Origin: Candidatus Kaiserbacteria bacterium | Lineage (GTDB): Bacteria > Patescibacteriota > Minisyncoccia > Phycocordibacterales > Phycocordibacteraceae | Direction: 5' to 3' | DNA length: 64,000 nucleotides | Assembly (NCBI GenBank): GCA_023264445.1 | Contig: JAHFMN010000003.1 | Span: forward strand, 18,421 to 82,420 | Shown: positions 2,995-19,372 of the stretch, piece after piece | Layout of the letters: the number at the start of each line of letters is the position of its first letter | Position numbering within the stretch: position 1 is the stretch's first letter | Translations under genes and position numbers: made by a program | The notes under the pieces: generated by a model | What the model saw: only the letters and a program-made list of their open reading frames with translations | Told to the model about the DNA's origin: nothing | Databases searched by the model: none

Positions 2995-4755
2995 TTATGC
3001 TCGCTGCATCTTGGCAAAATAGGAACCGTGGTTCTTGAGCAGTGATTCAGGCGTTCCGTGCTCGACAATGCGCCCATGGCTCACGACGAGGATAGTATCG
3101 GCCTCGGCGACCGTGGAGGGCCGGTGCGCGATGATGAGCACGGTCACCTTGCCGTGCAGCGCGCGGATGGATTCATGGATGAGCTTTTCGGACTCATGGT
3201 CAAGCGCGCTCGTCGCCTCATCCAGGATGAGAAGTGCCGGGCGGCCCGCAAGGGCACGGGCAAGCGCGATACGCTGACGCTGGCCGCCAGAGAGCATGAC
3301 ACCGCGATCGCCCGTTATCGTTTGGAACCCTTCGGGCAGCCCCATGATGAAGTCATAAATGTTGGCTTGCTTCGCGGCATGCTCAATTTCCTCGGTGGTC
3401 AAGGTGTGATTATAAAATCGGATGTTGTCCTCAATCGTACTGTTGAGGAGAAATACGTCCTGCGACACATAGCCGATATGTCTGCGCCATGTTTCAAGCG
3501 AGATGGACTCGCTTGGTACGCCATCGAGGAGTAGTTCTCCCGCGCTCGGTTTGAAGAGCCGTAAAAGGAGATCCGCGACGGAGGTCTTCCCTGCGCCTGA
3601 AGGCCCGATAAGTCCTACCGTCTCCCCTGCACGTATGGAGAAGTCAATGCCATCTAGCACCGGCTTGCCTTCCGCATAGGCGAATGAGACTCCCTTGAAG
3701 GCGAGTTCTTTTTGGAAACTGAAAGAGGAAGTTCCTTCAGACGACTCGCGATGCAGGTCGAACTGGCGCTTGAATGCCGCGATGTTCTCGACGTACGGCA
3801 CGAGCTCGCTCACTGACTGGAGCGCGACTTGGCCGGACTCAAGATAGGTGAATATTTTTTGTATGAGATAGAGTGATGCCGCAAACGAGATGATGTTAAA
3901 GGAGTCCGAATGATACGTGAGAAGGAAGAGCACCATGGCGAGCATGATGCTGACCGGCTGGAAGAAGCTCGTACCGAGCGAATGCACGAGTGCCTGCCGG
4001 ATGGAGAGCGAGCGTAGGTGGTGGATGTGAGAGCTACCGTCGGTAATAGCGGCACGCTCCGCGCCGGCGGCCTTGATGGACTTCATGCCAATGATGTGTT
4101 CAGTGAGAAATTGCGCAAACTGCTTCTCCACTCCCGCCACCTGCCGCCCGATGCGCTGTGCGCGCCGCAGAAACGGCCGAAGCAAGAAGAGGAGGATGAC
4201 GCCGCCGAGAAGCGTGTAGAGCGTGATGCTTGGCGAGATGTTGATGATGACGAGGAGATACATGAGGAAGCCGCTGAAAGACTGGACGATCTGCGCGATG
4301 GTGCCGAGAAGCCCGCTTGTCTGGTGCACGTCCCGCACGAGCGTATTCTGCAGCGTGCCTATTTTCTGTTTCAACGAGAACGACCAAGAAGAAAGCAGCG
4401 CCCGGCGCAAGACATCCGCGCTTTCCTTACCGAGGAAGTCGGCGCTAATCCATCCGCGGATAAAGCCGAACACGACCACCGAAATCGAACGGAGTATGAA
4501 AAGGATAAGTATGAATCCAAGCAGGTAACGGAACGAAAATGGTATGTGCAGGAAGGCAAATAATCCCTGTATGGTCTGTGAGATGAAATCGGTCGCCGGG
4601 GAGCTCGCTCCGGTGAAGAAGCTTATGAGCGGGATGACGGCATTGATGCCGATACCCTCCAAGAGAGAGCTTATAATGCCAAATATGATGAGCGCCACGA
4701 TATGCCAGCGGTAGGCACGAAACGCCTGCCAGAGCGTCGTGAGGGTGTTTTTCAT
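2995..4755 (-). CDS. ABC exporter, fused permease/ATPase (MsbA/type I exporter-like)
   Basis: Six-TM N-terminal domain then Walker A GPSGAGKTS, signature LSGGQRQRIALARAL and Walker B LLILDEATSALD. Start at MKNTLTTLWQ (4755). Confidence 0.85.
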   Translation of the reverse strand: MKNTLTTLWQAFRAYRWHIVALIIFGIISSLLEGIGINAVIPLISFFTGASSPATDFISQTIQGLFAFLHIPFSFRYLLGFILILFILRSISVVVFGFIRGWISADFLGKESADVLRRALLSSWSFSLKQKIGTLQNTLVRDVHQTSGLLGTIAQIVQSFSGFLMYLLVIINISPSITLYTLLGGVILLFLLRPFLRRAQRIGRQVAGVEKQFAQFLTEHIIGMKSIKAAGAERAAITDGSSHIHHLRSLSIRQALVHSLGTSFFQPVSIMLAMVLFLLTYHSDSFNIISFAASLYLIQKIFTYLESGQVALQSVSELVPYVENIAAFKRQFDLHRESSEGTSSFSFQKELAFKGVSFAYAEGKPVLDGIDFSIRAGETVGLIGPSGAGKTSVADLLLRLFKPSAGELLLDGVPSESISLETWRRHIGYVSQDVFLLNSTIEDNIRFYNHTLTTEEIEHAAKQANIYDFIMGLPEGFQTITGDRGVMLSGGQRQRIALARALAGRPALLILDEATSALDHESEKLIHESIRALHGKVTVLIIAHRPSTVAEADTILVVSHGRIVEHGTPESLLKNHGSYFAKMQRA

Positions 4756-4810
4756 AGATGAGTCGATATCCACTATAACCTGCGCCCGCTGACAAAAGAA
4801 ACCGCCCTCA

Positions 4811-5581
4811 CTAGACACGCCCACCAATATGGTGCACGTGCGGAGCAGTAAGTGAGAGGCGCTCGAGCTGGGTGGTTGAACGGGCATTCTTTGATTCTAG
4901 GATGCGTGCAGATCGTTCGTGGCGTTTGATATTCCACCCGTACGTATTGTGGACGAGGTCGCCCTCGCGCACATGCACGAGCTTCGCTGCTGCTTTTCCC
5001 GGCCAGAGTATCTGCTGTGCGGCGATGGTTCCCATCTCCTCCATTCCTGCATTGTCCGGGTCGTTCACCGCATCGGCGGTAAGCACGAAACCGGTATGGA
5101 TAAGGTGTCCGGTCGACCACATCGCGCACGTGTTCCAGGGAATCTGCAGACCGCTCGCCCCTTCCACAAGCACACGCTCCCCGGGCGGCGCTTTAACATC
5201 ATGCCCATCGAGACGTGCACCAACGACGAGCGTTTCGTCGTCAGAATGGGATTGCAGGAGCGACACGAGCGATGGCGTCACAGGATATTCGGTGCTTGTG
5301 AAAAGGAGGTGGGTTACTTGCTTTTCTGCACATTTGAGAAGAAGCGCATTCGGCGCTTGCACCACTCTGCCCCATGGGACGACGGAAAATGCAGTGACGG
5401 TCGGATATTTTTCTCGCATGAAATCATGGCTTCCTGAAAGGTCGGCCTCGGTATTAATAGCAACGAACACCTGTTCCGCAGGGACGACCGCAAGCGCTGC
5501 ATCGACCCAGGTCGCGAGGCGCTGGACATCACCCTTGGTGAGTCCATAGAAGCGCGTTGCAATGCCTAATTTCTGCTGCAT
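4811..5581 (-). CDS. Hypothetical protein; possible nucleotide-sugar-modifying enzyme, family not recognised
   Basis: 256 aa from MQQKLGIATRFYGL. Four-nt gap to the upstream ATP-grasp stop. No recognised motif. Confidence 0.35.
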   Translation of the reverse strand: MQQKLGIATRFYGLTKGDVQRLATWVDAALAVVPAEQVFVAINTEADLSGSHDFMREKYPTVTAFSVVPWGRVVQAPNALLLKCAEKQVTHLLFTSTEYPVTPSLVSLLQSHSDDETLVVGARLDGHDVKAPPGERVLVEGASGLQIPWNTCAMWSTGHLIHTGFVLTADAVNDPDNAGMEEMGTIAAQQILWPGKAAAKLVHVREGDLVHNTYGWNIKRHERSARILESKNARSTTQLERLSLTAPHVHHIGGRV

Positions 5582-5585
5582 ATTC

Positions 5586-6794
5586 CTATTGAACGACAAA
5601 TTCCACGACCTGTACTGCCCTCTCTGCGGCTTCCACTGCCTCCGCGCGCGAGGGTGCAAGCGCTATGACATAGCCCACGCGCGATGGATGATTCACTATT
5701 GCGGGAATTTCATCTCCTACCTGCACCCACGGATCGACTTTTTTGATGAACGGCATATTCCTGGCTTCGGTAAGTCCTCGAATTTCTTTGATGACGCCTG
5801 GGGACGGAAAGAAATACCGCTGCGAAGTTGCCATATGCTTCGTCGGGACAAAACGATTCTGATCAACGCTGTTGCCGACGGTCATATCAATGAGGATATC
5901 CACGATATCAACGCCGGTAGACCACGGTACTTTGTCATAGCAGAAGTTGCCGCCGGAGAGGCGCGCCGCTATTTCAATCACGTACGCCTTGCCGTCGTCG
6001 CCCATTACCATGTCTCCTTTTGCAGGCCCCCAATCAATGCCGAGCGCGCGGACCGCCTTTTCAAACTCTTCTTCAACCAATCTTTTCTGCGCAGGGGGAA
6101 GAACCGTCGGGATATCTCCGCCATCTTCAACGAGATGCGGAGTCGTCTTTTCTACGTTCTCGTAATTGCGGTCAGCAAAGCCGGTGCAATGGAATATATT
6201 GTCGTGCATGATGCCCTCGGTGCTCACTTGGAGCCCGGGAATGTATTGCTCGGCAATCAAGTCTCCGGAATACGAATACTTCCTCGCGTACTCAAATGCC
6301 CACGAGAGGTCCGTATCGGCAGTGATGCGCAGGACGCCGCGTGCGCCGGAATTATCCACCGGTTTCAGCACCACCGGGAAGCCGGCATGTTCGATAAAGG
6401 ACTGGAGATCCGCAAGTGTCCGCACCGATGTGAATTTCGGAATGTTCACCCCGCCGCGTTCAAGTTCTTCTTTCATCTTGAATTTCTGCACGCACGTCTG
6501 CGCGACTGAAAGCGGGATATGCTTGACGCCGAGGTATTCCGCCGCCGCAGAAACGCAATGCGGGATGTCGCTTGCAATGGTCATGACGCCATCAATCTTT
6601 TTCTTGTACCCCTTCAGGAACTCAAGGATAGCCGGTACGTCTCGGGTGCTGACCAGATAGAATTCATCGGCATGCGTGGCACCGGCAGCCTTCGGATTCA
6701 TATCAAACACGACCGTATGTATGCCTTTTTCCTTCGCACGATCAATGGCATTCACTTGTTCTATCCCCGCTCCGAGAATCAGAATGGTTTTCAT
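5586..6794 (-). CDS. ATP-grasp domain ligase
   Basis: 402 aa: MKTILILGAG...VVLKPVDNSGARGV...EQYIPG...YVIEIAARLSGG, the typical ATP-grasp pre-ATP-grasp/central/C-domain layout. Confidence 0.75.
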   Translation of the reverse strand: MKTILILGAGIEQVNAIDRAKEKGIHTVVFDMNPKAAGATHADEFYLVSTRDVPAILEFLKGYKKKIDGVMTIASDIPHCVSAAAEYLGVKHIPLSVAQTCVQKFKMKEELERGGVNIPKFTSVRTLADLQSFIEHAGFPVVLKPVDNSGARGVLRITADTDLSWAFEYARKYSYSGDLIAEQYIPGLQVSTEGIMHDNIFHCTGFADRNYENVEKTTPHLVEDGGDIPTVLPPAQKRLVEEEFEKAVRALGIDWGPAKGDMVMGDDGKAYVIEIAARLSGGNFCYDKVPWSTGVDIVDILIDMTVGNSVDQNRFVPTKHMATSQRYFFPSPGVIKEIRGLTEARNMPFIKKVDPWVQVGDEIPAIVNHPSRVGYVIALAPSRAEAVEAAERAVQVVEFVVQ

Positions 6795-6795: not shown

Positions 6796-7536
6796 CTATG
6801 AGAACAGCATACCGCCGTTTACGTTCAGCGTCTGTCCGGTGATGGATGCAGCAGAGTCCGAAGCGAGGAATGCGACTGCTGCGGCGATCTCCTCTGGTGC
6901 AGTCAATCGGCCGATAGGAATCTGCGCGGCCTTCTGCTTCCCTTCTTTTGAACCAAGCTCTTTTTTAATCATGTCCGTCTCGACGAGACCGGGAGAGACC
7001 GCGTTGCTCGTAATGCCATCTCGCGAAAAAAGCTTCGCGAGCGAGTGCGTAAAGTTGATGAGTCCTGCCTTCGCCGCGGCGTAGTGCACCTGGCGCATGC
7101 CGCCCCACTGCCCGCCGATGGAGACGATATTGATGATGCGGCCCCAGCGCTTCTTCCGCATAGCAGGTACGGTCTCTTGAGCGACAATGAATGCGCCGCG
7201 CAGATTCGTCTCCAGCATGCGGTTCCAGTCAGCATCCGTGATGCGTTCAAAGGGCTTCTCGTCCGCGATGCCGGCGTTATTGACGACGATGTCCGGAGTC
7301 TTCCCCCATTGCTTTCGTACTGCAGCAAGCGCTTTCTTTATTGAAGCTCGACTGCGGATATCGACGCGCACGGCAAGCGCTTCCGGATACTTTTTCTCCA
7401 ATTCCTCCGCACCGTTCTTATGGAGGTTATACCCGCAGGCAACGGAATATCCCTCTGCAAGCAGCTTGCTCGCGACGGCATGTCCGATGCCGCGGCTTGC
7501 GCCGGTGACGAGTGCCAGCTTAGTGTTCGTTTTCAT
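6796..7536 (-). CDS. SDR family oxidoreductase (FabG-like ketoreductase)
   Basis: TGASRGIG cofactor motif, NNAG, catalytic YAAAKAG (YxxxK). Confidence 0.85.
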   Translation of the reverse strand: MKTNTKLALVTGASRGIGHAVASKLLAEGYSVACGYNLHKNGAEELEKKYPEALAVRVDIRSRASIKKALAAVRKQWGKTPDIVVNNAGIADEKPFERITDADWNRMLETNLRGAFIVAQETVPAMRKKRWGRIINIVSIGGQWGGMRQVHYAAAKAGLINFTHSLAKLFSRDGITSNAVSPGLVETDMIKKELGSKEGKQKAAQIPIGRLTAPEEIAAAVAFLASDSAASITGQTLNVNGGMLFS

Positions 7537-7539: not shown

Positions 7540-9285
7540 TTAATCGAACGATGACTCGGAATTCATGTCGTTCAGTTCTTTGCCGCCCATGAGCATAGGC
7601 AGGATGTCTTCCTGCGGATCTATCTCGCAGTGGATGAGCACCGGGCCTTTTCGTTTGAGCGCCTTCGTTATCTTTTCCTTTGCCCCGCGAACTGAAGGGA
7701 CGCTCACGGCATCGATGCCGTATGCGCGCGCGATGTCCGCGAAGTTCGGGTTGCGCTTACCGCCGGTTGCAGGATGCGACTTCCAGTTCTGTCGCTGGAA
7801 TTGCGCCACGATATTAAGAGCATGATTATCGAGGACAAGGATCTTGATATCGAGATTCCGCTCTGCGATAAATGCGAGCTCTTGTATGTTCATCTGGAAG
7901 CTCCCATCGCCCACTACGCAGAGCACCTTCGTGCGCGGGGCGGCCATCTTCGCGCCTATGGCGGCAGGAAGATCGAATCCCATCGTCCCATGACCGGAGG
8001 AAGTGAGGAGCTGACGTTCGGGATGCGAAAACGAAAAATGTCGTGGCACCCACATCTGGTGCTGGCCGACGCCGGTGGCAACGATGACATCCCCGGCGAG
8101 AGCATCGCTTGCCCATTCGATGACATGCTGCGGCTTGAGGTATGCGCCGCGCTGCTGCTCTGGCACGAGGGCGTGCGTCTTTTTCCATTCTTCAATGCTT
8201 GTGAGCCATGCCGTAGTTTTTCCTTTCGTTCGAGCCTTCTTGGAGAGAAGCGCATTGAGTGCCGTGAGTGCCTCGCCCACATCGGCATGTATTTTCAAAT
8301 CAAGCGGTACGCGGCTGTGGTCGAGCTCTTTTTCGTCCACATCTATGCGCGCAACCTTGCCTTGCGGCGTCATCCGCGCGGGCACACTGCCGGTCTGGCG
8401 GACGTGGAGCGTCGTCCCAAGCGCGATGACAAGATCAGCGTTGTAGAGAGCAAGATTCGCATACCGGCTTCCCACGTAGCCGCAGAGGCCGAGCGACAAC
8501 GGTTTATCGGAAGGGTACGCGCCCATGCCAGGGAGACTCATGGTCACTGGTATCGAGAAACGGTCTGCAAGAGAGCGCAATTGGCGCTCCGCGCGCGCCG
8601 CAATGACTCCGCCTCCGGCTAGAATGACCGGACGCTCGGCCTTCACTATCCAGTCCGCAAGCGTTGCCAGCTGTTTCTTCGGCAATGGCAGGCTTTTTGA
8701 TTTCTTTTTCGCAGGAGCTCGCACGATGCGAGGCGAAATGACGGCACGCTGGACGTTCATGGGAAGATCGACGACGACCGGACCTCCTCGCCCCTCTCGA
8801 GCAAGTGCAAACGCTTGCTCCATGACAGAGGGGAGTTCAGTTGGCTCTGTCACGAGCCATGCGGCCTTCGTGATCGGAGTGAGCACGTCAACCGTATCCA
8901 CTTCTTGAAAACCGCGCTGTTTGACGGGAATTTTCCCGCGCAAGTCGCTTGTCCCTACTTGTCCGGTAAGCACCACCATCGGCACATTATCGAAATACGC
9001 ATCTGCTATCGGCGTCACGGCGTTCGTCACGCCCGGACCTGAAGTGACCATGTAGACCGCCGGCTTCCCAGTCACCTTCGCATAGGCAAGAGCGGCAAAA
9101 CCCGCACCTTGTTCATTCTTCGGACAGATGATTTCTATATCCGTCTCCTTCTCTACTACGTCCAAAATAGGCCCAATGGTCCCGCCCGGATAGATAAATA
9201 CTTTCTCCACGCCATTGCGCTTGAATGCTTCTACGATCGCGTGCGCGCCGAACTGGTCGCGCTTTTGTGTGTGTTTCTTTTTCAT
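7540..9285 (-). CDS. Thiamine-pyrophosphate enzyme of the acetolactate synthase large-subunit family (YerE-like candidate)
   Basis: 581 aa with Pyr domain, central domain and TPP-binding domain (GDGSFQMNIQELA...NN TPP motif). ATGA overlap with the downstream Zn-ribbon methyltransferase. Confidence 0.8.
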   Translation of the reverse strand: MKKKHTQKRDQFGAHAIVEAFKRNGVEKVFIYPGGTIGPILDVVEKETDIEIICPKNEQGAGFAALAYAKVTGKPAVYMVTSGPGVTNAVTPIADAYFDNVPMVVLTGQVGTSDLRGKIPVKQRGFQEVDTVDVLTPITKAAWLVTEPTELPSVMEQAFALAREGRGGPVVVDLPMNVQRAVISPRIVRAPAKKKSKSLPLPKKQLATLADWIVKAERPVILAGGGVIAARAERQLRSLADRFSIPVTMSLPGMGAYPSDKPLSLGLCGYVGSRYANLALYNADLVIALGTTLHVRQTGSVPARMTPQGKVARIDVDEKELDHSRVPLDLKIHADVGEALTALNALLSKKARTKGKTTAWLTSIEEWKKTHALVPEQQRGAYLKPQHVIEWASDALAGDVIVATGVGQHQMWVPRHFSFSHPERQLLTSSGHGTMGFDLPAAIGAKMAAPRTKVLCVVGDGSFQMNIQELAFIAERNLDIKILVLDNHALNIVAQFQRQNWKSHPATGGKRNPNFADIARAYGIDAVSVPSVRGAKEKITKALKRKGPVLIHCEIDPQEDILPMLMGGKELNDMNSESSFD

Positions 9286-10253
9286 ATCGCTTCTCGTTTC
9301 CGCGCGACCCAGAAAATCCCGTTACCGGGCAACGCGAATGTCAGTATAAGGAAATTGAGGGGTTTGTATATCACGTAGCGCTTCAAGAGGGTCAATATCC
9401 GGTATAACCCGAGAAGGGCCTTTTTCGTTACCGTGTTCCCTTGCCTATCGATGAGCCGGTTCAGGCGGCTGCGGACGCCGAAACAGAGCGTCGGGGCAGC
9501 ATAGAGGGGGATGGTGCCGATAGAGAGGATGTCGAAACCAGAGCTCTCAAGCAGCCGCGTGAGCGCCGGCACGGTGAAATAATTGAGGTGCTCCGGCGGG
9601 ATGAGGTGATACCACTTCCTTCCGCGAAGCCGCGCGTATACGCCGCCGAAATTCGGCACGCTCCCGACATAGAGGCCGCCCGGGACGAGTCTATGCGCGA
9701 CTTCGCCCACATGCTCTCGCGGCTCCCGCACATGCTCAAGTGTCATGATTTCAGTTATGACGTCGAAATCATGAACGGCAACGTCCTCAATAGTTCCGGT
9801 CGTGATATCTACTCCTAAATGCTTCGCTCCGATGCGCTTGGCATCCGCATCCATATCCACGCCGTGCGCATCGAATCCGCACAGTTTTGCGGCATAGCAC
9901 ATGAATCCGTGGCCGCAACCGACGTCAAGAAGCCGCTTCTGGCCCGATGAACGGTACGGTTCTATAAGGGAAAGCAGAGTGAGGTTATCTTCTATGACGC
10001 TCTTGTTCGTATCGATGAAATCCTTCGCATCTCCGTGCTCATAGATATTTGATTTTGTCCTGCTCTCGCGATTCGCAGAGTAAAACTCAGCGAGTGCCGC
10101 GGCAGAAGGTAGAGGAGATACGGTCGCGAAGCCGCATGAGGCGCAGGTGATGAGGTCGTATTGCTGATTGTCGATTCCCGTAATCCCTTCGTAGGTCAGC
10201 CTGAAGTCGCCCCCAGAACACACAGGACAGACCATGGGATAGGTCCGGCTCAT
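9282..10253 (-). CDS. SAM-dependent methyltransferase with N-terminal Zn-ribbon (TylCIII-like sugar C-methyltransferase family)
   Basis: MSRTYPMVCPVCSGG...CASCGF then LLDVGCGHGF SAM motif. The long 5' ORF extension overlaps the upstream gene, so the start was set at 10253, 8 nt after the upstream stop. Confidence 0.7.
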   Translation of the reverse strand: MSRTYPMVCPVCSGGDFRLTYEGITGIDNQQYDLITCASCGFATVSPLPSAAALAEFYSANRESRTKSNIYEHGDAKDFIDTNKSVIEDNLTLLSLIEPYRSSGQKRLLDVGCGHGFMCYAAKLCGFDAHGVDMDADAKRIGAKHLGVDITTGTIEDVAVHDFDVITEIMTLEHVREPREHVGEVAHRLVPGGLYVGSVPNFGGVYARLRGRKWYHLIPPEHLNYFTVPALTRLLESSGFDILSIGTIPLYAAPTLCFGVRSRLNRLIDRQGNTVTKKALLGLYRILTLLKRYVIYKPLNFLILTFALPGNGIFWVARKREAI

Positions 10254-10260
10254 CGCGAAG

Positions 10261-11514
10261 CTAGCGCTTGCAGGCGCGAAGCGCCAAGTCTGCCTGGCGC
10301 ACGGCATTCTTCCGCAGGTGCGGAAGCTTCTTTTCAATAGTCGCAATGACGTTCTCCCGGTCATCCACGATCGCATCGAAATTCTTGCTAAGCGATTCTT
10401 TCGTCCAAAACTCCGGTTCAATGAGATAGCCCCCGAGCCAAATCTCATCAAATGCGGGCCGGACGTGCCAGCTCCCGCCAAGCGGCAACACGGGAACCTT
10501 GTGCACGGCGGCAAAAATAGCGGAGTGGCGGCGATTCGATACATGCGCCCAGAGCTTCGGGAAAATCGAGAGGATAGCGTTCAGCTTCACGCGATCCTCC
10601 AAGCAGTGGAAGGCGTTCTTATGCTTCATCCGCTTGCGTATGTCGTGAGCGATCGGACGATCATCTTCCATCGCGTGGTCGATGTCGTAGGTGCAGTTCG
10701 GTATGGAGAGGATGACTGCGTCATGTGTTTCAATGATGTGGTCGCAGAATGCCGCAAGTTCATCCGCTGTTGTTCCCCAGAAGCGTTCGCTCCACTGCCA
10801 ATAATTGTGGCGGATATTGAATCCGATGACGCGCTTCCCTTTCGGCAGCTGTGCAAAAAACTTTTTGGCCGCTGGAGACATATCCTTCAGCGGGACTGGA
10901 TTCAGCGCCCATGCGGTATCGGAGACGACAACGCAATTGTCAGTCCTGATGCCAAGCTCATGGAGCCGCGTAAGCGAGAAATCTTCCCGAAGCGTGACGA
11001 GTGCCGCATTTTCAATGCAATATTTCGTCACCTCCTTTGCATACGATGAAATGAGCTTCGAACCCATATGGATGGAGTACAGCATGACCGGCGTGCCGAC
11101 GAACTTAGCATGCGTAATGAGGAGCGCGGCATAGGAAGCAAGGCCGCGATTGAAGGAAAGCGTTATCTCCTGGAACGGATCGCCGCCGATGATGAGGAGA
11201 TCCGATTCGCGGATAATGGCGTCGAGTGCGTGCAGATGGCCGGTCGGGTCGTTCTTATTGAGCCCGTTGAACCATCTCCCTTCAGAGGCGGCTTTCGTCT
11301 CGTGCTCGAGCCCGACGACGACTCGGTCGCATCCATATTCTTTTGCGAGCCGCTCGTTCTTATGGCGGGCGACCCAGGTGATGTGGCAGTTCGGCTCGCG
11401 AACGCGCAGTTCGCGGATGAGCACCGAAAGCAGCGTCTCATCTCCGGCATTCTCAATGCCGTACACGCTCGTGCCGACGATAGTTATCTTTTTCCGCTTC
11501 TTGGAGGTAGCCAT
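10261..11514 (-). CDS. Polysaccharide pyruvyl transferase (CsaB/WcaK family)
   Basis: 417 aa; N-terminal GTSVYGIENAGDE motif and overall PS_pyruv_trans-like architecture. Confidence 0.65.
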   Translation of the reverse strand: MATSKKRKKITIVGTSVYGIENAGDETLLSVLIRELRVREPNCHITWVARHKNERLAKEYGCDRVVVGLEHETKAASEGRWFNGLNKNDPTGHLHALDAIIRESDLLIIGGDPFQEITLSFNRGLASYAALLITHAKFVGTPVMLYSIHMGSKLISSYAKEVTKYCIENAALVTLREDFSLTRLHELGIRTDNCVVVSDTAWALNPVPLKDMSPAAKKFFAQLPKGKRVIGFNIRHNYWQWSERFWGTTADELAAFCDHIIETHDAVILSIPNCTYDIDHAMEDDRPIAHDIRKRMKHKNAFHCLEDRVKLNAILSIFPKLWAHVSNRRHSAIFAAVHKVPVLPLGGSWHVRPAFDEIWLGGYLIEPEFWTKESLSKNFDAIVDDRENVIATIEKKLPHLRKNAVRQADLALRACKR

Positions 11515-11535
11515 AAATAAGAGGGTGCCGGCTGC

Positions 11536-12786
11536 TTAATGCTTCATAAGCAGATCACGTACAGCGTCGGTAGCATACGCGCATTTTCCTTCCTGCACAA
11601 GCGCACTCCGATGAACGTGTTCCGCATCCCACCCGGCGAATGCATCCGCGAGATGGGTGAGCGATGTATCCGAAAAAAGGCGATCGAATGATTTCTCATC
11701 TACGAACTCTTTCGGCGCCATGCCCAAGCTCCGATACACCTTGCCGACATGATCCTTCTCGCCGAAGAGATAGAAAGGAACCTTGAGGAGAGCCGCATAA
11801 ATGCCGCTGTGCCGTCTGTTAGACACGACATATTTTGCGTGTCTGATGCAGTAGAGAAGCTCCTCGCTTGAGAGATAGAAATCGATCGGCACGATGCTTT
11901 CCTTTTTCTCACAATGCTCGTATATCTCGTGCTGGAAGTTGATGTCGCTCTCCCAATAGTCATCCAGTTCGTATGCGCAGTGAGGAACGAGAAGGACCTT
12001 GCATCCGTAGTGTGCGGCAAGCCGATCCGCGTATGCGGCAAATTGCGCGGCATATGTTTTGGAAGTGGCGTCATTCCAGAGCCAGTAATACCCGCGCACG
12101 GTGAGTGCGATGTACTCACCGGAGGAAAGGCGGGAAAATACCTCCGAAAGTTTCTTCGACTCTATGGGCTTCGCATGCCGCAGAAGGGCGAACCCGCTAT
12201 CCGCAGAAGAAACTACCTTCTCCGATGCTGTCCCGTACGTCTGTATGAGTTCGTCTTTCGTATCGTCCTCGCGCGTCGTTATGACGTCGGCATTGTCCAG
12301 GCAGAATTTCGTGAGCGCAATGCCGTATTCGGACGTCGGTCGGCGGCCGAGATGGATGCCGAAGAGGATGACTTTCTTCTGCAGGTATTTCGCGAGCGTA
12401 ATGAGATTCGCCGTATATGGCAATATCCCGCGAAAGGGCTCCGACGCCATATTGGTATTGGAATCGTCAAATGGGTCCCCGCCGATCATGAGCGCATCGG
12501 AACTTGCGATTTCCTCCCGAATAATCCGCAGATGCTCCGTAGAATCACCGGCATTAAATCCGTGGAATCGCTTGCCGGCGCTTTCCGCTTTTGACGGGAA
12601 GTCCAGATTCCGAACGCTGCGGACGCCAAATTGCGCCTCCACCTCTTTCCCTGGATGGCGGCAGATGAGTGTGACATCAAGATGAGGCATAGCTTCTCGC
12701 ATCCCGCCAAGAAATGATTGGAGCATGGAATCATCGCTTATATTCTTGAGGCCGTAAACGCTTGCGCCCGCTATGGATAATTTCAT
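11536..12786 (-). CDS. Polysaccharide pyruvyl transferase (CsaB/WcaK family), tandem paralog
   Basis: 416 aa; GASVYGLKNISDD and IGGDPFDD motifs collinear with the preceding gene. Confidence 0.65.
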   Translation of the reverse strand: MKLSIAGASVYGLKNISDDSMLQSFLGGMREAMPHLDVTLICRHPGKEVEAQFGVRSVRNLDFPSKAESAGKRFHGFNAGDSTEHLRIIREEIASSDALMIGGDPFDDSNTNMASEPFRGILPYTANLITLAKYLQKKVILFGIHLGRRPTSEYGIALTKFCLDNADVITTREDDTKDELIQTYGTASEKVVSSADSGFALLRHAKPIESKKLSEVFSRLSSGEYIALTVRGYYWLWNDATSKTYAAQFAAYADRLAAHYGCKVLLVPHCAYELDDYWESDINFQHEIYEHCEKKESIVPIDFYLSSEELLYCIRHAKYVVSNRRHSGIYAALLKVPFYLFGEKDHVGKVYRSLGMAPKEFVDEKSFDRLFSDTSLTHLADAFAGWDAEHVHRSALVQEGKCAYATDAVRDLLMKH

Positions 12787-12792: not shown

Positions 12793-13941
12793 TTAGTTTG
12801 GAAAATGGAATTGAAAAATCTCTTCGCCACGAATCTGGAGCGGCATCTTCTCTTTGAGGTCTTCGCCAGCGCGCTTCCCCACCACTTCCGCATACTGAAG
12901 GGCCGAGACGCCGATATCCGGGCGTAGCAGTGATAACGATTCTGCGGTCAGAATAGTTCCCTTCGCTACGGGCGCGCGCAGATACACTCCGCGCCGCGCC
13001 CACTGGCGCTCGTCCGCTTCCCGCATGATATATGAACCTTCGACACCAGGGTGCGTGACGGTCGTGCCATGAGGCGCGGGACGCTTGATGCCATCCCCTA
13101 GTGCCTTATCGAAATCCTCCACGAACTCCTTGCGGAGCTCCTTAAGAACAACTTCTTTATCCGAGCGAGCATCGATGGCGTGAATCCTTCGTACCATATC
13201 TGCGAACTCTTCGACCGACATGGAGAAAACGTCATCAATCGAGCCGCGCGCTTTCTTTGAAGTAACGTGCTTTTCGATGACGGACGCGCCCATCGCCACC
13301 GCCATAAGCGGCACCAGTACGCCGCGTGAGCCATTGTCGGAATATCCGGCGAGCACATCGAATTCTGCAGCAAACGTCTGCATCGCTCGTACATTCGCGT
13401 CTTCAAAACTCGTCGGATAGACCGATACGCATTGCAGAAGCACGATATCCTTCGCGCCATGTGCGCGGAGCGTTTCCATCGCCATACGCACTTCTTCCAT
13501 GGTAGCCATACCGGTCGACATGATGATCGGTTTGCCGAAACTCGCGGCACGCTCCAAAAGAGGCAGATTCGTAAGCTCCCCAGAGGCTATCTTGACCGCC
13601 GGCACGCCGACACTATCCAGAAACGATGCTCCATCGACATCAAATGGCGTGCAAAGCAGGTCGATGCCTCGCTCGTCGCAAAGTGCCTTCAGCTTCGGAT
13701 ACCACTCCCGCGGCGTCTCCGTAGTCTTGAAATAGTCATAGGTTCCCTTGAGGCCGGGCGTGAGCGGCACGAGCAGTTTGTCGGCTTCAAAGAGCTGGAA
13801 CTTAACCGCGTCAGCGCCTGCGTCCGCCGCCTGGGCGACATACGACTGCGCCATTTCCCAATCATTGCCATGCGTACTCGCGACCTCAAAGATGATATAG
13901 GTCGGTCGTCCGGGTCCGAGCTCTCTGGTGCCTAGGTGCAT
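12793..13941 (-). CDS. neuB: N-acylneuraminate-type nonulosonic acid synthase (NeuB/PseI/LegI family) with C-terminal SAF domain
   Basis: TYIIFEVASTHGNDWEMAQ...KFQLF...IMSTGMAT...VLLQCVSVYPT plus C-terminal SAF (GVYLRAPVAKGTILT). Start set at MHLGTRE (13941), 17 nt after the upstream stop. Confidence 0.85.
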   Translation of the reverse strand: MHLGTRELGPGRPTYIIFEVASTHGNDWEMAQSYVAQAADAGADAVKFQLFEADKLLVPLTPGLKGTYDYFKTTETPREWYPKLKALCDERGIDLLCTPFDVDGASFLDSVGVPAVKIASGELTNLPLLERAASFGKPIIMSTGMATMEEVRMAMETLRAHGAKDIVLLQCVSVYPTSFEDANVRAMQTFAAEFDVLAGYSDNGSRGVLVPLMAVAMGASVIEKHVTSKKARGSIDDVFSMSVEEFADMVRRIHAIDARSDKEVVLKELRKEFVEDFDKALGDGIKRPAPHGTTVTHPGVEGSYIMREADERQWARRGVYLRAPVAKGTILTAESLSLLRPDIGVSALQYAEVVGKRAGEDLKEKMPLQIRGEEIFQFHFPN

Positions 13942-13957: not shown

Positions 13958-14575
13958 TTATGCCGCGCGCTCCTGTTTGTCGTGCGCCGCCGCAGAATGA
14001 TAGGTGCCTGACTTGATGGCCTCGATGCCGCGCGCCTCGGCCGCAAGACGCTCTTGATACGCTCCAGTCTGTTTGACTGCATCAAATGTTTTCTGGAAAT
14101 CAGGATTATTCTCGACAAGCACCGACTCCGCAGAGATAAACTCCGGCTGTACGGCTGGCTTCACGACATGCTCGCAGAACGTGCGCAATCGCGGGATGTG
14201 ATACTCGTTTGCGACGATGAGCACGCGCGACCATCCTTCCTTCATTGCAAGCGCAAGCGATTCCTCAAGCTGGGTTCGGCTTGTTTCCGATTTTTCCTCA
14301 AGCACGATGCTCTCGCGTGCGACGCCAAGCCCGATGAGCTCGTCTGCCGCAATGCGTGCGTGCGTCGGGAGCTCGTTTCCGCGCCTTGATGTCGTAACAA
14401 TGACGGCATCCGGGAATCGCCTTGCGAGAATCGCTGCTGCCTTGATTCGTGCGTGGCCGCCAAGCGTTCCGAACGCATCTCGATCTTCGTAGGAGGTTGA
14501 ATGCCACGCTCCGGCGCGAAGTACGGAACCGGATGTGGGGATGATGATTGCGTCGGGAATCATGACTGTTTCCAT
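13958..14575 (-). CDS. DUF218 (YdcF/SanA/ElyC family) protein
   Basis: 205 aa; IIIPTSGS...VTTSRRG...EEKSETSRTQLEES...IVANEYHIPR matches the DUF218 pattern. Confidence 0.55.
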   Translation of the reverse strand: METVMIPDAIIIPTSGSVLRAGAWHSTSYEDRDAFGTLGGHARIKAAAILARRFPDAVIVTTSRRGNELPTHARIAADELIGLGVARESIVLEEKSETSRTQLEESLALAMKEGWSRVLIVANEYHIPRLRTFCEHVVKPAVQPEFISAESVLVENNPDFQKTFDAVKQTGAYQERLAAEARGIEAIKSGTYHSAAAHDKQERAA

Positions 14576-16224
14576 AACATTGGATTCACTATCTCACGGC
14601 CGATGCCCTGAAGGCGAGCTCTGATTGCTTCAATGAAACCGTCGGGGACGCTTGCACGCGCAGATGCAAGATTCCCTTCAAGCTGTGCGAGCGTCTTTAC
14701 GCCAAATACGACACGCGCGACCGAAGTAGCATGTAATGAGAAAAGGAGCGCCGCCTCCATCTGCGAGAGATTGAACTCTCGTGCAATGCGTATGAATTCT
14801 TCAAGATACGGCCGTGCGCCCGCGATGTTTGCCGGCAATTGTTCGGGACTCATGAGCAATACGCCCTGTAGAAAAGGGCTCCGCGCAAACACAGTCGTTC
14901 CCTGCTCTTTTGCCTTTGGCCAGAAATCAGTCGCGTCTAAGCGCTGGTCAAATGCGTTGTACGGCACTTCCACGCAATCGAGGCCCTGGCGCACTGCTTC
15001 AAGCGCTTCGTCCTCGTCATATACGGAGACGCCGATCCGCTCAGCAAGGCCATCTTGCTTGATAGCGCGCAGGGCATGAAGCGCATCCTCTCGAAAAACA
15101 TACCGGGAGTTGTTGAGCAGGTAGCAGGAGAGCCGATTAAGCTTGAGCCGGCGCAAGGTCTGCTCTACATCGGCCCGTATGATTGTGGCGGCATCTACTT
15201 CTCCAGCGTGCTCACCAAGCGTGCGGGGTCCGAGTTTGGAAAGTACGCTGATTTCCCCAGCGACATTGCATGTACTCACCCATTCTCCGAGAATATCCAC
15301 TGCATTCCCGTAATCACCCGCTGTATCGAAGGTAGTGATGCCTGCGGCATATGCAGCATCCAGAATGGCGAAAGATTCTTCTTTTGTCGGCTGACCGACG
15401 TCATCTAGTCCATACGTCTTTCCGAGCTGAACGGTCCCGAGCGTTAATCTCTTCATGAGACCTTTCCAGACTTCGTCTTTTTTCTTCGTCTTCGCGAGGC
15501 CTTCGTATCCGGTCCCTCCTTTATTTATTTCCAGAAGTCCCGGCTTACGCGCAAGAAGTGCAAGGATATCGTCTTTGCCGAAGACAGGGTTTGCCGGGTA
15601 TAGCTCCTCAAATATCTTCGTCGCAAATTCGAAATCTTGCTCCGTGTCCACCGACCAATGCATCGCTGAATCATCACGTTCGCCCACCGTCCATGGCAGT
15701 CCATGGAATCGCTCTGGACGGTTCTTGAAATACTGCGCGAGATGCTCGCGCTCGGAGGGCAGCCGCCCGTTCTGCGCCGCTTCCTCAAGCGCGGAGAACG
15801 CAAAGATATCGGTATCAAGCCCTTCGGGATAATTCGCTGGCGTACCTGCATACGCGAGCGGATCGTGTGCATCGATAAAATGCCGCGTCGCCTCGTCAAT
15901 CACGGATGGGTCGTGAAGAACGCAATCTCCCGTGAGGCAGACTACGACATCCGCATCTATCTCTTTCGCCGCACGGTACACGCGATCAAGCACATCGTCC
16001 TCGCTTCCGCGGAAAACGCCGACACCAGTACGGGTAGCAAGCTCGGCGACTGCATCGTCTCTTGATTTTTCTGATGTCGCCACGATGATATGGTCAATTT
16101 CTTTTGCACGCTTCACGCGCTCGAGCATGCGCGCAAGCATCGGCTCTCCAAGAATCGGCTTCAGCACCTTGCCCGGCAACCGCGTCGAGCCCGTCCGTGC
16201 CTGGATGATTGCAACGGCCTTCAT
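14560..16224 (-). CDS. CMP-nonulosonic acid synthetase-like cytidylyltransferase (PseF/LegF/SpsF family) fused to an aldo/keto reductase domain
   Basis: N-terminus MKAVAIIQARTGSTRLPGKVLKPI (CTP_transf_3). C-terminal ~300 aa has AKR features (GITTFDTAGDYGNA...). Confidence 0.75.
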   Translation of the reverse strand: MKAVAIIQARTGSTRLPGKVLKPILGEPMLARMLERVKRAKEIDHIIVATSEKSRDDAVAELATRTGVGVFRGSEDDVLDRVYRAAKEIDADVVVCLTGDCVLHDPSVIDEATRHFIDAHDPLAYAGTPANYPEGLDTDIFAFSALEEAAQNGRLPSEREHLAQYFKNRPERFHGLPWTVGERDDSAMHWSVDTEQDFEFATKIFEELYPANPVFGKDDILALLARKPGLLEINKGGTGYEGLAKTKKKDEVWKGLMKRLTLGTVQLGKTYGLDDVGQPTKEESFAILDAAYAAGITTFDTAGDYGNAVDILGEWVSTCNVAGEISVLSKLGPRTLGEHAGEVDAATIIRADVEQTLRRLKLNRLSCYLLNNSRYVFREDALHALRAIKQDGLAERIGVSVYDEDEALEAVRQGLDCVEVPYNAFDQRLDATDFWPKAKEQGTTVFARSPFLQGVLLMSPEQLPANIAGARPYLEEFIRIAREFNLSQMEAALLFSLHATSVARVVFGVKTLAQLEGNLASARASVPDGFIEAIRARLQGIGREIVNPMLWKQS

Positions 16225-16227: not shown

Positions 16228-17544
16228 TCAATTCAAGCGCTGGAATCCTGTGTGGGCGACGGGACCCTTCAGCCGCTTCATGACATCACCACGCTTGACT
16301 GCTTCTGCGATGATCTTGAACACTGCATCGACTGCATGAAGATAATTTTTGATGTGTACGGTAGTGTGCGCGGCACTTGCGAAGTAGAGATTGCTTGCGA
16401 GAAATCCGCGCTCCAGCATTTCTTGCACGAAGAGCGTCTTGAGCGCTTGTGCGTTCGGATGATTGAAAGAGAAACTGGCGATCGGCATGACACCGCCCAT
16501 AGTAATCGAGAGTCCATGTTTGCGCGCAAGGCGCTCCCATCCAGCGCGGACAGTCTGTCCGTTTTTCGCGATGCGTTCCCATACTTTTATCTTTTTCATC
16601 TTCTTCAGGGTTGCAAGCGCGGCAACGGGTCCGATGCGTTCGGTCCAGTAGGTGCTCGAGATGAAAGAACCTTGCGCCGCCTCCATAACTTTCCGACGGC
16701 CGATGATAGCCGCCATCGGATAGCCATTGCTCATCGCTTTGCTGAAGACGGCGATATCCGGATTCACTTTATAGAGAAGATGCGAACCGCCGTAGGTGAG
16801 CTTCCAACCCACTGTTATTTCATCAAATACCAGTACGGCGCCGGTTTTGTCGGCGATACGACGTACCTTTTGAAGGAAATTGTCGCGTGGCTCCTCTCCG
16901 TGTATCGGCTCCATGATAATGGCCGCGAGATTCTTTCCATGCTTGCGCACGATGGCTTCAAGTTCCTCTATCTTGTTGTAGTGGAATGGGATGACCGTAC
17001 CGCGCAGACTTTTGGGCACGCCCTTCGGGGAAAGTCCTGCGAGCAGATGCTCCTTGAGGCCATCCTTGCGCGCGAGATTCGTCGCAAGATACCAGTCGTG
17101 CCAGCCGTGGTAGCCACAAAAGGCGATGACGTCTTTACCGGTAGAGGCGCGCGCGATGCGTTCGGCTATGGCCATCGCTTCCCCGCCAGTGCGCGCATAG
17201 CGCACCATATCCGCCCATGGATGGATTTTCGTGAGTAGCTCTGCGAGCTCTACTTCCTCCGGTGCATTCAATGTGGACATGGAACCCGCGTCCACGGCTT
17301 TCTTCACTGCCTTGTTCACGTCCGCATCAGCATAGCCGAGAATACAGCTTCCCACGCCCATAATGGACATATCGGTATATTTCTCCCCATCCAGATCCCA
17401 CACCTCGCATCCCTTCGCTTTTGAGTAATATGCCGGCCAATAATCCGGCAGGAACATCTCGGGCCGCTTTGAAAGAAGCTGCGTCCCGCCCGGGATGAGC
17501 TTTTTCGCTTTTTCGTAGAGTTTTTGTCCCGTATTCTTTTTCAT
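16228..17544 (-). CDS. Class III PLP aminotransferase (glutamate-1-semialdehyde aminomutase-like)
   Basis: GYHGWHDW, VFDEITVGWK, AVFSKAMSNGYP motifs. Start at MKKNTGQKLYEKAKKLIPGG. Confidence 0.8.
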   Translation of the reverse strand: MKKNTGQKLYEKAKKLIPGGTQLLSKRPEMFLPDYWPAYYSKAKGCEVWDLDGEKYTDMSIMGVGSCILGYADADVNKAVKKAVDAGSMSTLNAPEEVELAELLTKIHPWADMVRYARTGGEAMAIAERIARASTGKDVIAFCGYHGWHDWYLATNLARKDGLKEHLLAGLSPKGVPKSLRGTVIPFHYNKIEELEAIVRKHGKNLAAIIMEPIHGEEPRDNFLQKVRRIADKTGAVLVFDEITVGWKLTYGGSHLLYKVNPDIAVFSKAMSNGYPMAAIIGRRKVMEAAQGSFISSTYWTERIGPVAALATLKKMKKIKVWERIAKNGQTVRAGWERLARKHGLSITMGGVMPIASFSFNHPNAQALKTLFVQEMLERGFLASNLYFASAAHTTVHIKNYLHAVDAVFKIIAEAVKRGDVMKRLKGPVAHTGFQRLN

Positions 17545-17548
17545 ATCA

Positions 17549-18229
17549 TCATGCGCCGGGGCGGTAACCGCCACCGATTACTTTCTTGTAGAGCGTCGCG
17601 GCGGCGCGGAAGTCATCCCGGGTTTTCGCTGTTGCATGCTTCTTTGCATCTGCCGTATAGGTATATACCCGCTCAACGCGGATATAGTTGCCGCTTGCTT
17701 CGAAGAGTGCCCCGTAATCCGCTTTATACGTGAAGACGCCGGGGCGATAGCGATACGGATTCTTGCGGGGTTCTCGAGGCAAGAAATCGCAGATGATGAG
17801 GTAGCCGCCGTCTGTAATAGCACGGTCTATTTCAGCGACAGACTGAAGAAGCGTGTCACGCGAGACCCAATGAAAGGTGAACACCGCAAGAGCCAGGTCA
17901 AACGAAGCGTCCTTGACCGGAAGTTTCGCGGCTACGCCGCGCTTGAGTTCTATGCGAGGAAATTTTTTCTTGCCGGCAGCGACAGCAGACGCAGACGGCT
18001 CCACGCCGACATACTGCGCGCGCGGACGCGCGCGACGCATGGCTTCAAGCCGCCAGCCGTTTGCGGCCCCGACATCAAGCACGCGCTTCGGATGCAACCG
18101 GTGCTTCAGGATGAGCTTCTCAACGAGGTCGCTACGCATCTCTCGTGCTTCGGGCGTAAGCGCATCCGCATTGCGCGCGTACCATGCATCAGCTTCTTTT
18201 TTACTGAAAATGTCGTCTTGGTTTTTCAT
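17549..18229 (-). CDS. Class I SAM-dependent methyltransferase
   Basis: RVLDVGAANGW motif I, 226 aa. ATGA overlap with the upstream PseC-like gene. Confidence 0.75.
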   Translation of the reverse strand: MKNQDDIFSKKEADAWYARNADALTPEAREMRSDLVEKLILKHRLHPKRVLDVGAANGWRLEAMRRARPRAQYVGVEPSASAVAAGKKKFPRIELKRGVAAKLPVKDASFDLALAVFTFHWVSRDTLLQSVAEIDRAITDGGYLIICDFLPREPRKNPYRYRPGVFTYKADYGALFEASGNYIRVERVYTYTADAKKHATAKTRDDFRAAATLYKKVIGGGYRPGA

Positions 18230-19368
18230 GCGTTCTTGAGTGCCGTGCGAAGCGCTTCTGCCACGCGCTTCTGCTGTGCAGGCGTTATCTTTGCAAACAG
18301 AGGCAACGATATCTCGGCCACGACGAACGCTTGCGTCTTTGGGCAGAGTTTCTGCGAGTATCCGAGATCCTCATAGAGAGGATGCGTGTGGACGGGGATA
18401 TGATGCACCTGCACGCCGATCCCTTGCGACCGCAAGGAATCGAAGACTGCGCGGCGCTTTGAAGGGTCTTTGAGACGCAGCGTATAGAGGTGCCAGGCAG
18501 AGCGTTCAAAGGCACGTTCATCTAGCGGGAGTACGACGCCGGGAATATTCTTCAGGAGTGAGCCGTAGCGCTTCGCCGCCGCGCGGCGCTTGGCGATGAA
18601 AGAATCAAGGCGCTTCAGCTGGCTCTCGCCGAGCGCGGCGAGAATGTCCGGCATGCGGTAATTGAAGCCGAGCGCATGCATCTCCATATGCCATCCCCCA
18701 TCCTCATTGCGTCGTAGGTACAGCTTTTCTTTCGTAATGCCATGACTACGGAAGAGCCGGAGTGTACGGGCATATTCTGCATCATTGGTGGTCACTGCCC
18801 CGCCCTCGGCAGTCGTAATCGATTTGACCGGATGGAAACTGAAGATCGTCATGTCGGCAAGTGACCCTGTCTTTTTTCCACGATACGAAGCACCCAGACT
18901 TTGAGCGCCATCCTCGATGAGGACGAGCTTGTATTTCTTCGCGAGCGCGCGGAACTCTCGCATGTCTGCAGGCCGACCCGTGTAATCAACCGGCACGATG
19001 ACCTTCGTCTTCTTCGTTATGTTTTTGCGCACATCCGCGACGCTCATATTCCCTGTCGCTGGATCTATATCAGCAAATACGGGCTTCGCACCGAGATAGA
19101 GCGCCGCATTCGCCGTAGCGGCAAAGGTGAGCGCTGGCACGATGATTTCGTCGCCCTTTGTGATACCGGCAGAAAAATACGCCGCGTGAAGCGCCGCCGT
19201 TCCGGAATTGAACGTAACGGCGAACTTCGCGCCGACTTTTTTGGCGAGTGCTTTTTCAAAACGCTCGATAGCTGGCCCTTGCGTAAGCCAGCCAGACTTC
19301 AAGGTCTGCACGACTGCCTTCACGTCGGCTTCGTTTATGTCCTGCGTGGAGTACGGGATCATGCGCAT
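18226..19368 (-). CDS. pseC: PseC-like DegT/DnrJ/EryC1/StrS sugar aminotransferase
   Basis: MRMIPYSTQDINEADVKAVVQTLKSGWLTQGP...SFHPVKSITTAEGGAV (PLP lysine). The N-terminal IPYxxQ...LTQG signature is typical of PseC-type enzymes. Confidence 0.8.
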   Translation of the reverse strand: MRMIPYSTQDINEADVKAVVQTLKSGWLTQGPAIERFEKALAKKVGAKFAVTFNSGTAALHAAYFSAGITKGDEIIVPALTFAATANAALYLGAKPVFADIDPATGNMSVADVRKNITKKTKVIVPVDYTGRPADMREFRALAKKYKLVLIEDGAQSLGASYRGKKTGSLADMTIFSFHPVKSITTAEGGAVTTNDAEYARTLRLFRSHGITKEKLYLRRNEDGGWHMEMHALGFNYRMPDILAALGESQLKRLDSFIAKRRAAAKRYGSLLKNIPGVVLPLDERAFERSAWHLYTLRLKDPSKRRAVFDSLRSQGIGVQVHHIPVHTHPLYEDLGYSQKLCPKTQAFVVAEISLPLFAKITPAQQKRVAEALRTALKNA

Positions 19369-19372
19369 AAGA

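Follow-up and report, generated by a model that had tools for sequence, protein, structure and literature searches.

A tandem pair of pyruvyl transferase-family genes beside a nonulosonic acid synthase gene in a patescibacterial surface-glycan locus

Results

Two adjacent PF04230 paralogs within one operon

The stretch of DNA analysed here, referred to throughout as the window, comprises 64 kb of contig JAHFMN010000003.1 (assembly GCA_023264445.1, positions 18,421 to 82,420), and its positions 1 to ~52,000 are nearly all occupied by a minus-strand glycan locus. Within this locus lie two adjacent genes of the polysaccharide pyruvyl transferase family PF04230, which we name PvtA for the downstream paralog (10261-11514, minus strand, 417 residues) and PvtB for the upstream paralog (11536-12786, minus strand, 416 residues). 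A first-pass annotation, made from the sequence alone, had placed two adjacent proteins of ~416 residues at this site, and both open reading frames (ORFs) bear this out. Of the two motif blocks that it ascribed to the pair, IGGDPF is present in both proteins, while GxSxYGxxNxGD is matched exactly in PvtA (GTSVYGIENAGD) and imperfectly in PvtB, where Ser replaces the final Gly (GASVYGLKNISD). The paralogs are 31% identical over 386 residues (BLASTP, E 2e-61) and the longest nucleotide repeat common to their genes is 22 nucleotides (nt), so the pair represents old paralogs and not an assembly duplication, one of the circumstances that the annotation had named as its own refutation.

The pair is tightly flanked on both sides. 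Only 6 nt separate pvtB from an upstream gene for a NeuB-type synthase of nonulosonic acids (NulOs; 12793-13941, minus strand), 21 nt separate pvtB from pvtA, and 7 nt separate pvtA from a downstream methyltransferase gene (9282-10253, minus strand, with its start as called on an identical contig). These gaps indicate that the four genes form one tightly packed operon, in which the NeuB-type synthase stands on one side of the pair and, on the other, a cassette of methyltransferase, thiamine pyrophosphate (TPP) enzyme, short-chain dehydrogenase/reductase (SDR) and ATP-grasp ligase.

A distinct branch of the pyruvyl transferase family

Membership of PF04230, for which the first-pass annotation had proposed a profile search, was confirmed for PvtA (78.2 bits, E 1.3e-21) and PvtB (93.1 bits, E 3.6e-26) against a gathering cut-off of 25.3 bits, with matches that span positions 1-277 and 40-278, respectively, of the 280 in the profile. 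The narrower description of the pair as CsaB/WcaK-type enzymes did not hold, as neither protein is an ortholog of CsaB or WcaK and both score far under the equivalog cut-offs. The CsaB model TIGR03609 is the best NCBIfam match of both, but at 76.1 bits for PvtA and 65.1 bits for PvtB against a cut-off of 213.1, whereas our positive control (P0125, a genuine CsaB and the most distant match of the homology search) reaches 303.7 bits. Scores on the WcaK models are lower still, at 28.7 (TIGR04006) and 35.3 bits (NF007452) for PvtA and 21.7 bits for PvtB, with cut-offs of 727 and 399, respectively.

We defined the Pvt subfamily as proteins of ~405-420 residues with a conserved insert and the motifs IGGDPF, RxxYWxW and SNRRHS, encoded in a NulO gene neighbourhood. 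PvtA and PvtB display all of these features, from length, insert and motifs to a neighbourhood of NeuB, the cytidylyltransferase domain CTP_transf_3 and the cassette. The insert, of ~22 residues (PvtB 57-83), has the consensus NLDxxSKxxSxGRxFxGxNxGDxT with invariant K66, G71, F74, G76, N78 and D81, and is not present in CsaB by profile-profile alignment with hhalign. Further traits specific to the subfamily are GGD for GGG, a YW insertion after the loop Arg, NRRH for xRLH, and His for Lys. An exhaustive profile search returned 16,499 representatives at E<=1e-3, which amounts to the whole superfamily, and 617 at E<=1e-30; among the top 150 matches listed, ~100, mostly full-length, score above ~185 bits and were taken as the Pvt subfamily. 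PvtA and PvtB belong to a small branch of the pyruvyl transferase family that is linked to NulO genes, is as yet uncharacterised, and is set apart from CsaB and WcaK.

Despite this distance, the machinery for binding phosphoenolpyruvate (PEP) appears to be retained. An alignment of 40 Pvt members matched CsaB P0125 with a probability of 99.7% in hhalign (E 3e-25, 354 columns, 20% identity), and the residues that are invariant among these 40 members of both paralog clades, namely R172, D196, R231, R324/H326 and H346 in PvtB numbering, correspond in this alignment to the R, D, loop-R, R-x-H and K of the control. In CsaB of Paenibacillus alvei, mutagenesis has identified R148, R207, H308 and K328 as critical for PEP binding and catalysis (PMC10435577); we related the Pvt residues to this numbering by motif and spacing and not by direct alignment. 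Both paralogs keep the Arg/Arg/His set of the PEP site, with His in place of the Lys that corresponds to K328. As all PEP-site residues are kept in both paralog clades, neither copy looks like a dead partner. A GT-B fold was predicted for PvtB by AlphaFold2 with a mean pLDDT of 94.5. Sequence searches of PDB chains, both with PvtB and with the 40-member subfamily profile, returned no meaningful match even at E<=10. To our knowledge, the galactose (Gal) 4,6-pyruvyltransferase Pvg1p of Schizosaccharomyces pombe (PDB 5ax7) is the only crystallised member of the family.

Comparison with the characterised enzymes places these features in context. CsaB of Bacillus and P. alvei, which forms the 4,6-ketal on beta-N-acetylmannosamine (ManNAc) of secondary cell-wall polymers (SCWPs), shares with Pvt the PF04230 domain in a GT-B-like two-domain fold, a soluble protein, an N-terminal YG-x-x-N-x-GD motif, and the PEP-binding Arg, loop Arg and R-x-H. 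It differs from Pvt in its ~20% identity, in the ~22-residue insert, GGD, NRRH and the His for Lys328 that mark Pvt, and in its setting among TagA, TagO, SecA2 and S-layer homology (SLH) genes as opposed to a NulO operon in a host of the candidate phyla radiation (CPR). WcaK of Escherichia coli, from the colanic acid pathway, is likewise a PF04230 protein, of 426 residues compared with the 416-417 of Pvt, and gives a weak co-linear match over residues ~160-345. It acts on the terminal Gal of an undecaprenyl diphosphate-linked hexasaccharide and is encoded in a Wzx/Wzy locus without NulO genes. Pvg1p belongs to the same Pfam family and follows the same logic of PEP binding, through R217 and R337-L338-H339 (PMC10435577).

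Linkage to nonulosonic acid genes across phyla

To place the pair among its relatives, genes were mapped by tblastn and Pfam in 34 non-redundant related loci, together with two contigs for which gene tables alone were used. NeuB and/or CTP_transf_3 lie within 10 kb of Pvt in 20 of the 22 loci of at least 10 kb, which come from at least eight phyla; the remaining two are L010, whose contig breaks off within the cassette, and the virus-like L022. The tightest linkage is to the Methyltransf_23 methyltransferase, the TPP enzyme, an SDR and/or iron-containing alcohol dehydrogenase (Fe-ADH), and the ATP-grasp ligase, often with a GH57-like protein. The zinc-ribbon Methyltransf_23 protein, present in most related loci, is the most constant immediate neighbour of Pvt, while the TPP enzyme may be of acetolactate synthase-like, split transketolase-like or split decarboxylase-like type. 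The hosts include Patescibacteria, Acidobacteriota, Actinomycetota, Nitrospiraceae, Rhodothermales, Alphaproteobacteria/Sphingomonadales and a cyanobacterium.

The settings of these loci differ considerably. Flagellin genes adjoin the cassette in five loci from Alphaproteobacteria, among them L004, which also carries FlaF/FlbT; in the 21 kb of L004 that were read, there is no conventional glycosyltransferase apart from a tetratricopeptide repeat (TPR) protein. The Acidobacteriota locus starts with a Maf-type protein, whose match is strong to PF01973 (MptE-like) and weak to the Maf N-terminal domain. Several related loci are flagellin glycosylation islands, and others are Wzx/GNVR polysaccharide loci. 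Since the flagellin, Maf-type and Wzx/GNVR settings differ from one another, the NulO machinery emerges as the one constant partner of Pvt, with no fixed glycan backbone.

Tandem Pvt pairs occur in 13 of the 36 loci, and the arrangement recurs in distant lineages. PvtA falls into a broader A clade with 105 relatives and PvtB into a narrow B clade with 21. In a neighbour-joining tree, loci of the CPR/Rhodothermales type have B-clade upstream copies and A-clade downstream copies, and loci of the Acidobacteriota/Actinomycetota type have separate upstream and downstream sister clades, while Alphaproteobacteria and Nitrospiraceae carry a single copy. Pairing therefore either goes far back or evolved repeatedly, an argument for its being functional.

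Three observations on individual relatives deserve mention. Several loci contain a second NeuB homolog (L017, 14359-15420, and a JGI contig) beside a split TPP decarboxylase (~170 + 150 residues), Fe-ADH, ATP-grasp and GH57-like genes, which suggests chemistry more elaborate than the standard pathways to pseudaminic and legionaminic acid (Pse/Leg), with either a further condensation with PEP or a side chain derived from a hydroxy acid. The metagenome contig L022 (Ga0222694_1000027) carries a tandem Pvt pair at 9980-12480, with 36% identity to PvtB, among a NUMOD3/HNH homing endonuclease, split C5 DNA-methylase fragments and a 1522-residue ORF without a Pfam match, and looks like a phage or virus-like element that bears a Pvt pair; a scan of IMG/VR and GenBank phages found no Pvt relatives, and a plasmid scan gave a single match, at 26%. 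Lastly, L005 and L006 are the same contig with identical tblastn maps in metagenome-assembled genomes (MAGs) labelled 'Candidatus Saccharibacteria' and 'Bacteriovoracaceae', a double labelling that is probably a binning error in a co-assembly.

The glycan locus around the pair

All genes of the locus described here are on the minus strand unless stated otherwise. Upstream of the pair, the NeuB-type synthase (382 residues as called on the identical contig) combines a PF03102 domain (E 3e-74) with a SAF domain and scores 268 bits on NeuB_NnaB and 253 bits on PseI in NCBIfam. It is preceded by a DUF218 protein (13958-14575, PF02698), which is fused to CTP_transf_3 in the relative L016, and by a fusion of a CTP_transf_3 cytidylyltransferase, a putative synthetase of cytidine monophosphate (CMP)-NulO, with an aldo-keto reductase (14560-16224, PF02348 and PF00248, with weak PseF/KdsB matches). 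Next come a class-III aminotransferase resembling glutamate-1-semialdehyde aminomutase (16228-17574, PF00202 with NCBIfam matches), which is a cassette member in relatives, a DegT/PseC-like sugar aminotransferase (18226-19518, PF01041, E 4e-122), a second DegT-family aminotransferase (20347-21594, PF01041, E 7e-92), and a PseB-like UDP-N-acetylglucosamine 4,6-dehydratase (22567-23571, PF02719), which scores 384 bits on the PseB model TIGR03589 with a cut-off of 408. The PseB step is the start of the pathway to 9-deoxy NulOs. A GFO/IDH/MocA oxidoreductase and methyltransferases also lie upstream. At 24650-25558 a truncated DegT-like ORF (profile positions 109-308 of 360) overlaps a FemAB/GNAT-like ORF (23635-24831) by ~180 nt, and may be what is left of a gene, the result of a frameshift, or an ORF whose start was mis-called.

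Downstream of the pair, the methyltransferase gene encodes an S-adenosylmethionine (SAM)-dependent Methyltransf_23 protein with an N-terminal Cys4 zinc ribbon (PF13489; 323 residues as called on the identical contig). It is followed by an acetolactate synthase-like enzyme with three TPP domains (7540-9285; 528 bits on TIGR00118, cut-off 538), whose slot is taken in relatives by a split transketolase or a split TPP decarboxylase, an SDR that is kept beside Pvt and the TPP enzyme (6796-7536, PF13561, E 9e-62), and an ATP-grasp ligase of the L-amino-acid-ligase type, kept in relatives (5586-6794, PF18603 and PF02655). Beyond a gene for an unknown protein lies a fused ABC exporter with transmembrane and nucleotide-binding domains (2995-4887, PF00664 and PF00005), which is syntenic with the cassette in the CPR relatives L005-L007.

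More than 12 glycosyltransferases (GTs) are encoded in the window, together with two GT-C/PMT_2 proteins and the ABC exporter, and GT9, GT4, GT2 and GT-C (PMT_2) enzymes lie further along the locus. A 628-residue GT-B protein (28077-29963) is a candidate NulO transferase based on its weak match to NF046086, the BFO_1060 family (E 5e-9, 36 bits, under the cut-off of 200), and also has weak Epimerase_2 and Glyphos_transf matches; the link of this family to NulO transfer is presumed here from work on Tannerella forsythia. Given this GT, and the Maf-type and TPR proteins of related loci, we disfavoured a role of the Pvt pair itself as the NulO transferase. The pair as a stand-in for a missing PseG/NeuC hydrolase was also considered, and was rejected because L009, L004 and L017 carry, besides Pvt, a PseG-like domain fused to CTP_transf_3.

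Two GT2 and PMT_2 (GT-C) gene pairs (777-2988 and 32126-34152) and a GtrA-like membrane protein (34200-34682, plus strand) suggest that, besides the cytoplasmic pathway, there is extracytoplasmic glycosylation that depends on polyprenyl-phosphate sugars. Just downstream of the first PMT_2 gene, at 1-776, is a second zinc-ribbon Methyltransf_23 gene, a paralog of the neighbour of PvtA. A B12-binding radical SAM enzyme (40215-41711) and an exostosin/GT47-like glycosyltransferase (41802-42917) also lie in the glycan locus, adjoining a GDP-mannose 4,6-dehydratase gene and a run of GT4 genes. Directly past the locus, a surface protein with lamin-tail and PKD domains (52032-53417) is encoded beside a VirD4/TraG/TrwB-like coupling ATPase (53424-55190).

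Host and absence of an S-layer anchoring context in the window

The first-pass annotation had set the pair against the background of CsaB-mediated anchoring of SLH-domain S-layer proteins in Firmicutes, and neither the anchoring nor the Firmicutes setting finds a counterpart here. No SLH domain occurs among the scanned proteins of the 64-kb window, the extent of the SLH check, and the same window holds none of the genes for SCWP synthesis or S-layer secretion that were sought (TagA/WecG, TagO, SecA2, SLAP). The locus of the CsaB control, in comparison, contains SecA2, SLAP, TagA/WecG, a MurJ-like flippase and TagO, and no NulO genes.

The host is a CPR bacterium and not a Firmicute, as two lines of evidence indicate. 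The best named homologs of a MurC-like ligase in the window, at 73-80% identity, are all from Patescibacteria, Paceibacterota, Kaiserbacteria or Minisyncoccia. The closest syntenic genome locus is that of a Candidatus Kaiserbacteria MAG, with full synteny from the DegT gene to the gene for an unknown protein that immediately precedes the ABC exporter gene. The window further contains a complete 16S rRNA gene (59638-61105, minus strand, 1352 bits), followed by tRNA-Ile(GAT) (59295-59372, minus strand). No 23S rRNA gene follows this tRNA and the next genes downstream are Mur ligases, so the rRNA genes are apparently unlinked, which fits a CPR genome.

Discussion

Our findings describe a branch of the pyruvyl transferase family whose members keep company with the machinery of NulO biosynthesis. 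We put at roughly even the chance that PvtA and PvtB are catalytically competent, soluble, cytoplasmic, PEP-dependent pyruvyl transferases that are dedicated to NulOs and tailor the precursor or the side chain of a NulO-type sugar, or the sugar itself. PEP as donor and the general chemistry are proposed on the basis of family membership and the conserved residues, a NulO-related acceptor is suggested by gene linkage, and the two paralogs may divide the labour between them. In the mechanism that we envisage, the pair would be co-transcribed with the PseB, PseC-like, NeuB and CMP-transferase pathway and would work alongside a tailoring cassette of zinc-ribbon methyltransferase, TPP enzyme, SDR, ATP-grasp ligase, class-III aminotransferase and aldo-keto reductase. 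Each enzyme would bind PEP through Arg172, Arg231, Arg324-His326 and His346 (PvtB numbering) and transfer a three-carbon pyruvyl unit to one or more hydroxyls of a NulO-type sugar, of a hexose precursor, or of a hydroxylated side chain that the neighbouring TPP, SDR and ATP-grasp enzymes may make. Such a transfer would yield either a 1-carboxyethylidene ketal or a 1-carboxyvinyl ether. The first-pass annotation had read the two copies as two ketal-pyruvate positions or a duplicated specificity; the paralogs may act at different positions, at different steps, or together as a heteromer. An enzyme assay by phosphate release is among the methods described in PMC8615578.

Several considerations weigh against this proposal. 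A PseB-type start implies a 9-deoxy, 5,7-diamino NulO, on whose core only O4 and O8 are left; as the geometry of O4 and O8 is poor, a cyclic ketal on the core is unlikely, and the group would have to be either an ether (carboxyvinyl or lactyl) or a ketal formed with a diol of the side chain. Two residues also depart from CsaB in the Pvt subfamily, where Lys328 is His and GGG is GGD, and the virus-like contig L022 shows no NulO genes within 10 kb of its pair. The subfamily contains no biochemically characterised member. A full-text literature search found no functional study that links PF04230 to NulOs or flagellin glycosylation, and a keyword search of the pyruvylation review PMC6801904 yielded neither the term 'nonulosonic' nor a link between sialic acid and a pyruvate substituent. 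Most matches from the literature applied 'pyruvylated' to the NeuB/PseI condensation, and no paper with both CPR and NulO terms was among the best literature matches for the two in combination. Finally, the characterised PF04230 enzymes all pyruvylate hexose diols, their acceptors being lipid-linked or glycans (PMC10435577, PMC6801904).

This last point is the foundation of the strongest alternative, in which the pair would install conventional 4,6- or 3,4-pyruvate ketals on Gal, glucose, mannose or ManNAc of a NulO-bearing lipid-linked glycan, its proximity to NulO genes reflecting no more than a shared 50-kb glycan locus. CsaB, WcaK, Pvg1p and others set the precedent for such hexose-diol acceptors, the glycosyltransferases, GT-C/PMT_2 proteins and exporter of the window indicate that a complex glycan is made, and some relatives do lie in Wzx/GNVR-type polysaccharide loci. 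However, glycosyltransferase content varies among the related loci while NeuB/CTP_transf_3 and the Methyltransf_23, TPP, SDR and ATP-grasp genes are conserved, the flagellin island L004 has no conventional glycosyltransferase near its Pvt gene, and the pair itself is embedded in precursor-synthesis genes, 15 kb from the nearest glycosyltransferase block. We therefore regard conventional hexose ketals as unlikely, though they remain a contender to be taken seriously.

Another explanation retains the GT-B fold and dispenses with pyruvylation, assigning the pair a reaction on a phospho-carboxylate such as CMP-NulO transfer or hydrolysis, or a hydrolase or epimerase step on a nucleotide sugar. The anomeric phosphate of CMP-NulO stands beside a carboxylate and in this respect resembles PEP. 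Pyruvyl transfer is nevertheless favoured by the PF04230 match over the full length and by the hhalign probability of 99.7% with CsaB, with all PEP-site residues kept, and the alternative roles have candidates of their own, in the BFO_1060-like GT of the window, in the Maf-type and TPR proteins of relatives, and in the PseG-like domains fused to the CMP-transferase in Pvt-bearing loci; such a reassignment is improbable. The model of the first-pass annotation, a duplicated CsaB-type SCWP pyruvylation (the ManNAc 4,6-ketal) that anchors SLH S-layer proteins, is scarcely credible, for although CPR cells have been reported to carry S-layers and CsaB is the best NCBIfam model for both proteins, scores of only 76 and 65 bits fall far below the 213 cut-off and the 304 bits of a true CsaB, the window shows no SLH domain among its scanned proteins and lacks the TagA/TagO, SecA2 and SLAP genes of the control locus, and relatives of this patescibacterial pair reside in flagellin glycosylation islands of Gram-negative bacteria.

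Returning to NulO-dedicated pyruvyl transfer, an extension of the proposal can be offered more tentatively. It is possible, if on balance doubtful, that the pair signals an undescribed class of sugar, namely a NulO, or its N-acyl or C-branched side chain, bearing a PEP-derived 1-carboxyethylidene or 1-carboxyvinyl group, with the paralogs installing two such groups or forming an obligate heteromer. The modification would be produced by a portable cassette of one or two Pvt genes, the zinc-ribbon methyltransferase, a TPP enzyme, an SDR or Fe-ADH, and an ATP-grasp ligase, and would adorn the flagellins of Alphaproteobacteria and Acidobacteriota, the polysaccharides of other phyla, and the surface of CPR cells. 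For the ether option, MurA and NikO offer an analogy, as they work in the cytoplasm and attach a three-carbon carboxyvinyl group from PEP to a hydroxyl of a nucleotide-activated sugar precursor; their fold and family are unrelated to Pvt, and the comparison goes no further than analogy. The nearest published precedent for the Pvt-NulO setting is an annotation remark on the flag-2 loci of Citrobacter, where De Maayer et al. (2020) noted 'WcaK-like' PF04230 genes in the flagellin-glycosylation region VR1 and suggested pyruvyl decoration of flagellin glycans (PMC6993521). There, too, a pyruvyl-transferase-family gene stands among tailoring genes for flagellin glycans that include Mtf23-type methyltransferases, but the remark, which we compare by its description only, involves no NulO link, tandem pair or CPR occurrence.

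The implications reach beyond this locus. Automatic 'CsaB/WcaK-like' labels would mislead the annotation of Pvt genes. NulOs on flagellins, capsules and S-layers govern motility, immune recognition and phage adsorption, and their chemical diversity far exceeds the tailoring enzymes that are known. A pyruvyl-transferase branch that accompanies NulO genes across eight or more phyla points to an acidic modification not yet described, for which surveys of NulOs could use Pvt as the gene marker and +70 Da as the mass shift to seek. In the host itself, a small-genome CPR bacterium devotes most of ~52 kb (positions 1-52,000 of the window) to an elaborate, sialic-acid-like surface glycan, an investment that is relevant to the interaction between episymbiont and host.

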